A stretch of 64,000 bases of DNA, taken from assembly GCF_032062105.1 (NCBI RefSeq), contig NW_026934231.1, positions 558,001-622,000 of the forward strand, written 5' to 3'. Positions within the stretch are counted from its first letter, which is position 1, and every line of letters begins with the position of its first letter. Below, piece after piece: positions 37,898 through 40,066 of the stretch. The position numbers were made by a program, and so were the translations under genes. The notes below the pieces were generated by a model. That model did no database searches and was not told the origin of the DNA. It saw nothing but the letters and a program-made list of their open reading frames with translations. Source of the DNA: Saccostrea cucullata. Lineage: Eukaryota.

Positions 37898-40066
37898 ATG
37901 AAGTGGATAAACAGCATTCTACTGACATTTTTTATGTCTTTCATTGCAAGAAGTAAAGCTAGTTGCGAGATCAGCAATTCCTCTGTTTCGAAACACAGGA
38001 CGGACTTTCAAGGATTAGTTTCAGCAGGGAATAAATTAATTTATGTTTATATCAACTCAAGCTTCTTAAAAGAAAACATAGTTGACGAATTTCATCGCAA
38101 CCGAATCCTGGAATGGATTTGGGTTACTCGGAACTACAAACATTTTCTTGGTTATCCGCTTGACTTGGATGTACTCACTCTAAATGTAATGAGAAGAGAC
38201 GTCGATGTTTTGAGACTAAATATCGATTTGGTCAATGAAACGAACTGTGTCAACGTGTCTGATCCTGGTTTTATACGCAGCTATCTGACAAACATACTAG
38301 TATTTAATGAATCTATTAGTACATGTAAATCATTTTTTGACTCTGACGTAAAACGTTGGATTTGTCATCGATTCTTCGAAAATCAAGAGTTCAAACGTAC
38401 TCTGTTTGATCTTTCGCACGTTTCTATTGGATACGACTTTCAGTGTTACTCCTCCAAACCCAATGTTGTGACGCAAGATGGGACGCATGAGCTGAAGTCC
38501 AGGGTTGTGTACCTTATTGTTGCCCTTGTCCTCCTCGCCTTTTTATTCACCCCAACTTATCTTTCTGTCGCAATACCAGACGAGACCAAGTGTCTTTTCG
38601 AACATTACCGGAAGTCGGACTACCCATACAGCCCCCGTCGTTTGTTTCGATACGTTCTTTTTTATAAAAATTGTTGCAAATTTGACTGTCTCGTCCGATT
38701 CACTCTGATAACTTTTCTGTGTTGTGTACTGTTCTTCGTCTTAAAACGAAGTATGTTGTTTGATTTACCAACTCCGTTGTCCGAGTACCCAAGGGTTTAT
38801 GACACGACTATTGAACAAATGTCAAGGGAAATGTATGCTTTCAAAACTGTTTTGTTTACCATATGGTTTTTGATAATGATGATTGGTCTCTTCTATCTCT
38901 CTAAAGACCAAGGGGATACGTTCTTACTTCTTGATGTTTTGGGTTGTTTGGACCGAGGAGAATTTGCGTTGCCTAATACAAAGACACGGTGTGGTCCTCT
39001 TAAAACGGTATCCGTTCATTCTGTCTTAGCAGTCTTGCATGCAGAGGAATGCAAATCCATTTGCAGGCAAACAATTCACAAGTTCTATTTACTTGTTTCT
39101 GTTAGGTTTTGGACAATTATTTTCCTTGAAGGTTTTCGATTTGCACCAAACAGAAATTTACGATGGATTTGTGTTTCTTTGGCAATAATACAATTCCCTA
39201 TAAATGTCTGCGTGACTTTTCTTCTAATCTCGTGTCCTTTACTTAACTACACATTTCAAAGCTTATTGTGCTTATTGCAAAAGTTTACAGAAATAAATAG
39301 CAATAATTTTTACATTAAAACTTTACAAAAGATTACCGGTTGTTTATCAACAGTACTTTCTATTGGTTACATGTTTGCACTATATTATTACTTCACAGAC
39401 AATGTCATAATCATAGGCTTTACATATTTCTTCCAAGCCACAATTTACCTTTTATTGGTTGCGGCTCCTCATCTGTATGCGACAAATTTTCGAATCTTTT
39501 TGTTTTGGGGATCGTCCATTCTATATTTATTGTTATATATTATTGAAAGTTTTGATTTGTACAAAGTGCTTCTAAATAAGATTTTAAAAATCAATGGTAC
39601 ATCCGAAATTAAAATCAGGATTTTTGAGAAAATAGCAGGGCGTTTCTTTCCATTGCGATTGGAACTATTTGTTGTAATTGGGAAAATATGCGTAACATTC
39701 ATGATTCTGTTCATCATTTATGATACTCTTAAATTCGTTCATTATTTGGACGAGAAAAGTTCTTTTGATCTGCATCAGGTTTTCTCTCTCCTCTTTACTC
39801 TTACTCCAGGACTTCTTGAAAAGTACTTCATTGAAAGCAACAAAGATAAGGTCACAAGACTTGGTGATGAAATTCGTGATTATTTAATGGAACTAAATGA
39901 AAATCCACCCGTCGCCGAGAACACTGTACCCTGCTGTTGTGACTGCTGTCGTGTGATTGGCCAAATTGTTATGGAAAGGCGGGAAATATACACATGTGAC
40001 ATATCCTGTTCGAGTTGTTTACTTGAAACTCGGAAAAACCATAACAACTACGATGAAATGCAATGA
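37898..40066 (+). CDS. Uncharacterised 722-aa multipass membrane protein in a single ORF
   Basis: 2.2-kb uninterrupted ORF; signal-peptide-like N-terminus; about 180-aa domain with Cys and N-glycosylation sequons; about 9-10 hydrophobic segments; Cys-rich tail (PCCCDCC). Splice acceptor just upstream (37885-37886) suggests a 5'UTR intron. Confidence 0.85.
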   Translation: MKWINSILLTFFMSFIARSKASCEISNSSVSKHRTDFQGLVSAGNKLIYVYINSSFLKENIVDEFHRNRILEWIWVTRNYKHFLGYPLDLDVLTLNVMRRDVDVLRLNIDLVNETNCVNVSDPGFIRSYLTNILVFNESISTCKSFFDSDVKRWICHRFFENQEFKRTLFDLSHVSIGYDFQCYSSKPNVVTQDGTHELKSRVVYLIVALVLLAFLFTPTYLSVAIPDETKCLFEHYRKSDYPYSPRRLFRYVLFYKNCCKFDCLVRFTLITFLCCVLFFVLKRSMLFDLPTPLSEYPRVYDTTIEQMSREMYAFKTVLFTIWFLIMMIGLFYLSKDQGDTFLLLDVLGCLDRGEFALPNTKTRCGPLKTVSVHSVLAVLHAEECKSICRQTIHKFYLLVSVRFWTIIFLEGFRFAPNRNLRWICVSLAIIQFPINVCVTFLLISCPLLNYTFQSLLCLLQKFTEINSNNFYIKTLQKITGCLSTVLSIGYMFALYYYFTDNVIIIGFTYFFQATIYLLLVAAPHLYATNFRIFLFWGSSILYLLLYIIESFDLYKVLLNKILKINGTSEIKIRIFEKIAGRFFPLRLELFVVIGKICVTFMILFIIYDTLKFVHYLDEKSSFDLHQVFSLLFTLTPGLLEKYFIESNKDKVTRLGDEIRDYLMELNENPPVAENTVPCCCDCCRVIGQIVMERREIYTCDISCSSCLLETRKNHNNYDEMQ

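Follow-up and report, generated by a model that had tools for sequence, protein, structure and literature searches.

The question raised by a stretch of 64,000 nucleotides (nt) of the Saccostrea cucullata genome (contig NW_026934231.1, positions 558,001 to 622,000; hereafter the window) is what kind of protein is encoded by its longest open reading frame (ORF). The ORF, located at 37898-40066 (+), runs uninterrupted from ATG to TGA and encodes a protein of 722 amino acids (aa), P0001; it is the longest among the three ATG-initiated ORFs of at least 150 aa in the window. P0001 carries 29 cysteine residues, and its C-terminal two thirds are long and hydrophobic. The original prediction, made from the DNA letters only, had described an intact single ORF for an orphan protein of an undescribed invertebrate membrane-protein family. 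The intact frame was confirmed and the undescribed family was supported, since P0001 has neither a sequence-family match nor a significant fold match and its gene shows expression, splicing and purifying selection. The term orphan held insofar as no named family was found, but not for the genome, which harbors a large family of relatives, with homologs in Ostrea, Saccostrea and Mytilus.

P0001 is a live gene, i.e., expressed, spliced and intact. RNA contigs from runs X1 and X8 of two different studies (X8 is an RNA library and X1 is presumed to be one) connect position 37668 to position 37893, and the few letters that deviate from the genome at this joint do so as an allele would. The genome shows a GTAAGT donor at 37669 and a CAG acceptor that follows a polypyrimidine tract and ends at 37886, 11 nt upstream of the ATG. 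Hence, the gene consists of one 5′ non-coding exon (37604-37668, +, with 37604 as a provisional start), a GT-AG intron in the 5′ untranslated region (UTR; 37669-37886, +) and one coding exon (37898-40066, +), so that the "single ORF" applies to the coding part and not to the whole gene. Two indels (12 and 6 nt) of the RNA contigs within the ORF leave the frame intact. The 3′ UTR (40067-40311, +) has an AATAAA signal at 40306, and an X1 contig extends 154 nt beyond 40140. Parts of the ORF were present in 20 of the 24 sequencing runs listed, from eight studies and with four runs recorded as RNA; these runs represent other individuals, possibly of a sister species. Of 26 long family ORFs, 20 have an acceptor-like site no more than 35 nt from their ATG, as compared to 15% of background ATGs, and the gene structure is therefore common to the family.

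Both P0001 and its family are under purifying selection. Among 40 listed of the 82 differences between RNA contigs and genome in P0001, 21 were synonymous and 19 non-synonymous, where 21.5% synonymous changes were expected; the ratio of non-synonymous to synonymous polymorphism (pN/pS) was 0.25 (p = 1.6e-5). The whole-length ratio of non-synonymous to synonymous substitution rates (dN/dS) was 0.15-0.32 in 10 of 11 paralog pairs, the remaining pair being saturated, and no region of the protein exceeded 0.59. Thus, neither absence of expression nor a neutral dN/dS was observed. The highest value in 10 of the 11 pairs (0.24-0.59) was that of a variable loop region (38909-39394).

P0001 is a member of an expanded, functionally unnamed bivalve family with about 50 related copies in the genome. 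A search of the S. cucullata genome with P0001 gave 47 matches at 35 loci, and two further searches from distant paralogs brought the total to 53 family loci on 41 contigs, with the last 16 rows of one of them lying in loci that had been counted before; this is a lower bound on matches, in which some locus pairs (C293/C19751 and C8250/C22671) resemble haplotype duplicates. In alignment A2, counted with near-identical rows removed, 23 of the 52 own-genome ORFs cover the ectodomain and the membrane core in one frame, whereas in many of the remaining ones the frame is disrupted by stops or frameshifts or truncated by a contig end. A protein search against 1.84 billion representatives returned 81 proteins, including the query. 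Among 30 matching clusters looked up, nine were named, all as "uncharacterized" or "unnamed" proteins from Ostrea, Saccostrea and Mytilus, and 21 had no name or taxon. The homologs include XP_048777935.2 and XP_056007165.1 of Ostrea edulis, XP_062619412.1 and XP_062597504.1 of S. cucullata, XP_061162825.1 and XP_061177213.1 of S. echinata, CAG2195263.1 and CAG2220449.1 of Mytilus edulis, and CAC5404250.1 of M. coruscus. XP_062619412.1 is letter for letter the ORF of paralog locus L009. The best match was the cluster of XP_048777935.2 (35% identity over residues 9-700, expectation value E 3.5e-82); in a tree computed over 447 columns from the 53 long sequences, without 71 fragments and read as unrooted, it falls with paralog L025 and not with P0001. 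The same tree showed deep clades, with the own-genome copies scattered over several of them and Mytilus in clades of its own between two oyster subfamilies.

Local family clusters, with members tens of kilobases (kb) apart, exist on contigs C13714 (four loci), C13564, C4719 and C8205 (three each), and they mix broken and intact copies, as in birth-and-death evolution. A second subfamily (L031:931-4620 with L105, L108, L045, P0055, P0046 and P0078) has a stalk of 60-180 aa before the ectodomain, which in some members includes dibasic sites; very long inserts, either Cys-rich or made of repeats, occur in the putative cytoplasmic loops. In the mussel models P0026 (M. edulis CAG2195263.1), P0016 and P0021, the ectodomain/first-helix part is duplicated or middle helices are missing; artefacts of gene prediction are one possible cause, genuine short forms another.

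The architecture of P0001 begins with an N-terminal hydrophobic segment (aa 1-22; 37964 being the first position behind its coding stretch 37898-37963, +), modelled as a helix at residues 2-15. The signal peptide proposed for it earlier is likely, with cleavage suggested by hydropathy and by the sequon enrichment of the domain behind. This domain is an α/β ectodomain (aa 23-200; 37964-38497, +) with five main strands in an AlphaFold2 model of P0001 built from 124 sequences (predicted local distance difference test, pLDDT, 81.5; predicted template modelling score, pTM, 0.82); residues 23-200 were also folded when modelled alone (pLDDT 84). In agreement with the glycosylated, Cys-containing ectodomain first described, it has five N-glycosylation sequons at residues 27-139 and cysteines at 23, 117, 143, 156 and 183. 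Across the family, 236 of 668 ectodomain Asn residues lie in sequons (0.35, against 0.14 expected, with a p-value inflated by the relatedness of the sequences), and all other loops are at chance. Owing to this confined enrichment and the conserved cysteines, the ectodomain is placed outside. W73, P87-x-D89-x-D91, C156 and G178-Y-D-F-x-C183 are conserved in it, with W73, D89, C156, G178 and C183 near-invariant. C23 is kept in 99% of sequences, and two relatives without a C117 equivalent carry a second Cys right after C23, on account of which the disulfides C23-C117 and C156-C183 are proposed. The core of the ectodomain belongs to the best-conserved parts of the protein, and C183 and K200 link it directly to the first transmembrane helix (TM1).

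The conserved D89-x-D91 could be read as the catalytic motif of a luminal domain in a membrane-embedded glycosyl- or acyltransferase. GT-A glycosyltransferases have a Rossmann-like fold with a DxD after a core strand. In the P0001 model, however, the DxD starts a short helix and does not end a strand, structural scores were at noise level (root-mean-square deviation 5-7), and no transferase family of Pfam was matched in the 27 or 93 family members scanned; an enzyme is very improbable.

Ten hydrophobic helices follow the signal segment according to family-averaged hydropathy and the model (residues 202-225, 261-287, 310-337, 419-445, 447-466, 471-499, 503-526, 531-566, 586-613 and 626-644), in accordance with the nine to ten expected from the sequence. 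TM1-TM3 (aa 202-337; 38501-38908, +), delimited by hydropathy, model and conservation, include the juxtamembrane motif Y237-x3-D241-x-P243-Y-x3-R248 together with R267; P243 is conserved in 53 of 53 sequences, Y237 in 50, and R248 and R267 in 47 each. The variable loop region (38909-39394, +), with a loop that is likely cytoplasmic, continues into helices 419-445, 447-466 (with P447) and 471-499; long Cys-rich inserts are present here in paralogs. The long Cys-rich loops of the original prediction are accordingly modest in the P0001 copy but much longer in its paralogs. The most conserved membrane core (aa 503-668; 39404-39901, +) comprises helices 503-526, 531-566, 586-613, 626-644 (kinked at P637) and 648-668, with Q/R513, Y517, P524, Y543, K596 and T610 conserved. 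Charged or polar residues conserved in or beside helices include K596 (46/53), Q/R513 (47/53), Y543 (50/53) and R267; Y237, D241, P243 and R248 of the juxtamembrane motif are likewise conserved there, as are the proline kinks at 447, 524 and 637. A Cys-cluster tail (39926-40018, +; CCCDCC ... CxxxCxxC, modelled with low confidence) ends the protein; the CCCDCC reported before lies within PCCCDCC at residues 678-684. This tail is likely cytoplasmic and palmitoylated or metal-binding. CC doublets are frequent in the tail and in loops 1, 3 and 4 (0.6-1.0 per 100 aa) but nearly absent from loops 2 and 8 and from the ectodomain (0-0.05). The tail and the loops that follow helices 1, 3, 5 and 8 are placed inside, since basic residues, CC doublets and long inserts of low complexity accumulate there; this placement demands an even number of crossings by the three helices of 471-566, one of which is therefore probably broken or re-entrant.

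Searches for known families support the view that no receptor, channel or transporter motif is recognizable in P0001. No Pfam-A family was matched at the curated cut-off (best E 0.034) in a scan that covered GPCR, TRP, Cys-loop, innexin, TMC, SID-1, EMP70/TM9SF, Acyl_transf_3 and 7tm_6/7tm_7. Likewise, 27 family members matched none at cut-off (best E 1.7e-4, no family matched by more than two members), nor did 93 alignment rows, of which 39 comprised the ectodomain only (best E 0.004). Foldseek with the full P0001 model gave no significant fold match (best E 0.57, TM-score normalized by query at most 0.14), and the ectodomain searched alone by structure scored far below the usual background. 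No full-length match to a characterised family was thus found in the libraries searched, and full-text literature searches, as judged from the opening parts of abstracts, gave no description of the family. The available text of an oyster membrane proteome study (PMC13669717) held no passage relevant to it; its supplements, like those of a coral study (PMC13044578), could list members.

P0001 could instead be a highly divergent branch of a known multipass superfamily (e.g., TMC/TMEM16/OSCA, 7TMIC, TM9SF or acyltransferase-3), which would be compatible with any mechanism. The membrane domain was searched only within the 722-residue model, in which single-domain matches can be missed, and word-based searches with alignments did not recover even known relatives. 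Against this stand the confident model with its background-level fold scores and the poor scores of the ectodomain alone. Within the libraries searched, the family is far from catalogued families and folds; a match of the membrane domain alone to a known superfamily is possible but doubtful, and the same degree of doubt attaches to the divergent branch. TMC/TMEM16/OSCA proteins have a ten-TM fold with a TM3-TM7 groove, and TRP and voltage-gated-like channels have S1-S4 followed by S5, a pore helix and S6; P0001 scored at background level against TMC/TMEM16/OSCA and TRP channels, and these families are not known to have a signal peptide together with an N-terminal ectodomain. A seven-helix bundle characterizes GPCRs with an ectodomain (adhesion, class C and Frizzled), and SID-1, GOST, TM9SF, HGSNAT/acyltransferase-3 and STRA6 each have an ectodomain and a membrane fold of their own. 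The general layout predicted for P0001 is shared by SID-1/SIDT, TM9SF/nonaspanins, GOST (TMEM87A), HGSNAT, NRF-6/acyltransferase-3 and meckelin, in which a glycosylated luminal domain with disulfide bonds follows a cleaved signal and precedes 7-12 membrane helices.

Two candidates were rejected on architecture. Cys-loop ligand-gated channels have four TM helices and a β-sandwich ectodomain with a conserved Cys-x13-Cys loop, whereas P0001 has ten hydrophobic helices and an α/β ectodomain with conserved Cys only at 23, 117, 156 and 183. Insect-type odorant and gustatory receptors (7TMIC) have a cytoplasmic N-terminus without a signal peptide, whereas in P0001 an N-terminal hydrophobic segment precedes a sequon-rich, Cys-bearing outside domain.

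It is tentatively proposed, with less than even confidence, that P0001 is a surface glycoprotein receptor-channel whose ectodomain is compact and followed by about nine membrane crossings. This is favored because a recognition-like outer domain is tied to TM1, the kinked core holds polar and basic residues at buried positions, and neither an enzyme domain nor a death fold was found on the cytoplasmic side; with no signalling or enzyme domain of Pfam at cut-off in the 27 or 93 members, a kinase, TIR or death domain to pass on a signal is lacking. Conserved polar or charged residues and proline kinks in helices are typical of permeation pathways. Ligand binding to the outer ectodomain would open a path for ions or small solutes across the conserved membrane core; this path may be lined by R248, R267, Q/R513, Y543 and K596 and might favor anions or lipid head groups. 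Palmitoylated Cys-rich cytoplasmic loops would tune gating, and the paralogs (15-35% identity) could each recognize different cues. In function, P0001 may thus resemble nAChR/Cys-loop and ionotropic receptors, many-copy families in which ligand binding by an outer domain is coupled to a membrane path; these have three or four membrane helices, whereas P0001 has nine to ten, with no Cys-x13-Cys loop and no sequence match. The nAChR/Cys-loop family is described as expanded in molluscs in the available text of one study (PMC6896357).

Several points weigh against the receptor-channel. Polar residues conserved within the membrane can have a structural role only. The topology of about nine crossings, N-out/C-in, is predicted, and the sidedness of helices 419-550 is putative. 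Depth over the ORF was very low in three poly(A) raw-read libraries (at most 1.4 per bin, against at most 0.06 in a silent upstream bin), which are not the main site of P0001 expression. The region-level dN/dS of the ectodomain (0.08-0.34) is as low as in the rest of the protein and gives no pointer to ligand diversification; at region level, it shows no sign of the diversifying selection that immune receptors often undergo, which speaks against a classical immune receptor.

The signal peptide, ectodomain and multipass layout would also suit a non-conducting receptor whose bundle relays ligand binding to an adaptor or G protein on the Y-x3-D-x-P-Y-x3-R motif and a cytoplasmic bundle (551-585 with 648-668). 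The near-invariance of this cytoplasmic motif and the likeness of a many-copy, single-coding-exon family to receptor expansions speak for such a relay, which is rather doubtful in our estimate. A transporter or lipid scramblase with a cargo-catching extracellular cap, working like STRA6 or CLPTM1L and not as a gated sensor, is another candidate; profile comparison revealed no internal repeat (best non-overlapping pair probability 0.7%), and about 50 divergent paralogs would fit recognition more than housekeeping transport, so that this function is distinctly unlikely.

The gene sits in a gap of ∼19 kb between FRA10AC1 and CCT7-type TCP-1 exons, and dispersed repeats and Gypsy-type integrase remnants adjoin it. 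The transposon-rich gap noted earlier is therefore real but seems incidental, as the flanks of 30 family loci have only short common repeats in common with the P0001 locus. A remnant of a Gypsy-type long terminal repeat retrotransposon (41061-44494, -) comprises an ORF for an integrase core (PF00665) and, apart from it, an integrase zinc-binding piece (PF17921); it is broken up by other repeats, which have inverted arms at 42487-43095. FRA10AC1 (30060-34045, +) has PF09725 on one exon, five splice joints in RNA reads and its last exon near 34011. The window further holds an RS-rich gene with an RRM (4175-7068, -), presumably PPRC1/PGC-1-like; a multi-exon coiled-coil protein gene with no Pfam match above cut-off (14999-21979, +); an exosome subunit with an ECR1_N domain (25725-27146, -), which we take to be EXOSC1/CSL4-like; and a TCP-1 chaperonin gene (53300-61930, -), presumably CCT7-like. 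PPRC1, EXOSC1 and FRA10AC1 are linked on human 10q23-24, and their neighborhood is possibly an old linkage.

A confidently modelled protein without a sequence-family match is thus an example of a family that occupies at least 53 loci of a single genome and is under purifying selection; its deep subfamilies also contain oyster and mussel sequences. To our knowledge, new multipass receptor or channel folds are rare in animals. It is possible but unlikely that P0001 is the founding member of a new animal receptor-channel class with new ectodomain and membrane folds, forming a chemosensory or microbe-sensing repertoire of about 50 single-coding-exon genes per oyster genome, so far invisible to annotation. 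In the available text of a coral study, which makes no mention of molluscs there, 115 of 161 annotatable conserved "dark" orthogroups were putatively membrane associated (PMC13044578); unnamed membrane families being common in marine invertebrates, the P0001 family is less surprising. Whatever its function, the family is a target list for structural and functional work, with a short list of near-invariant residues for mutation and with ORFs in single exons, which makes cloning easy. If its members are sensors, they would constitute an unrecognized input system of commercially important filter feeders, in larval settlement, environmental sensing or immunity.
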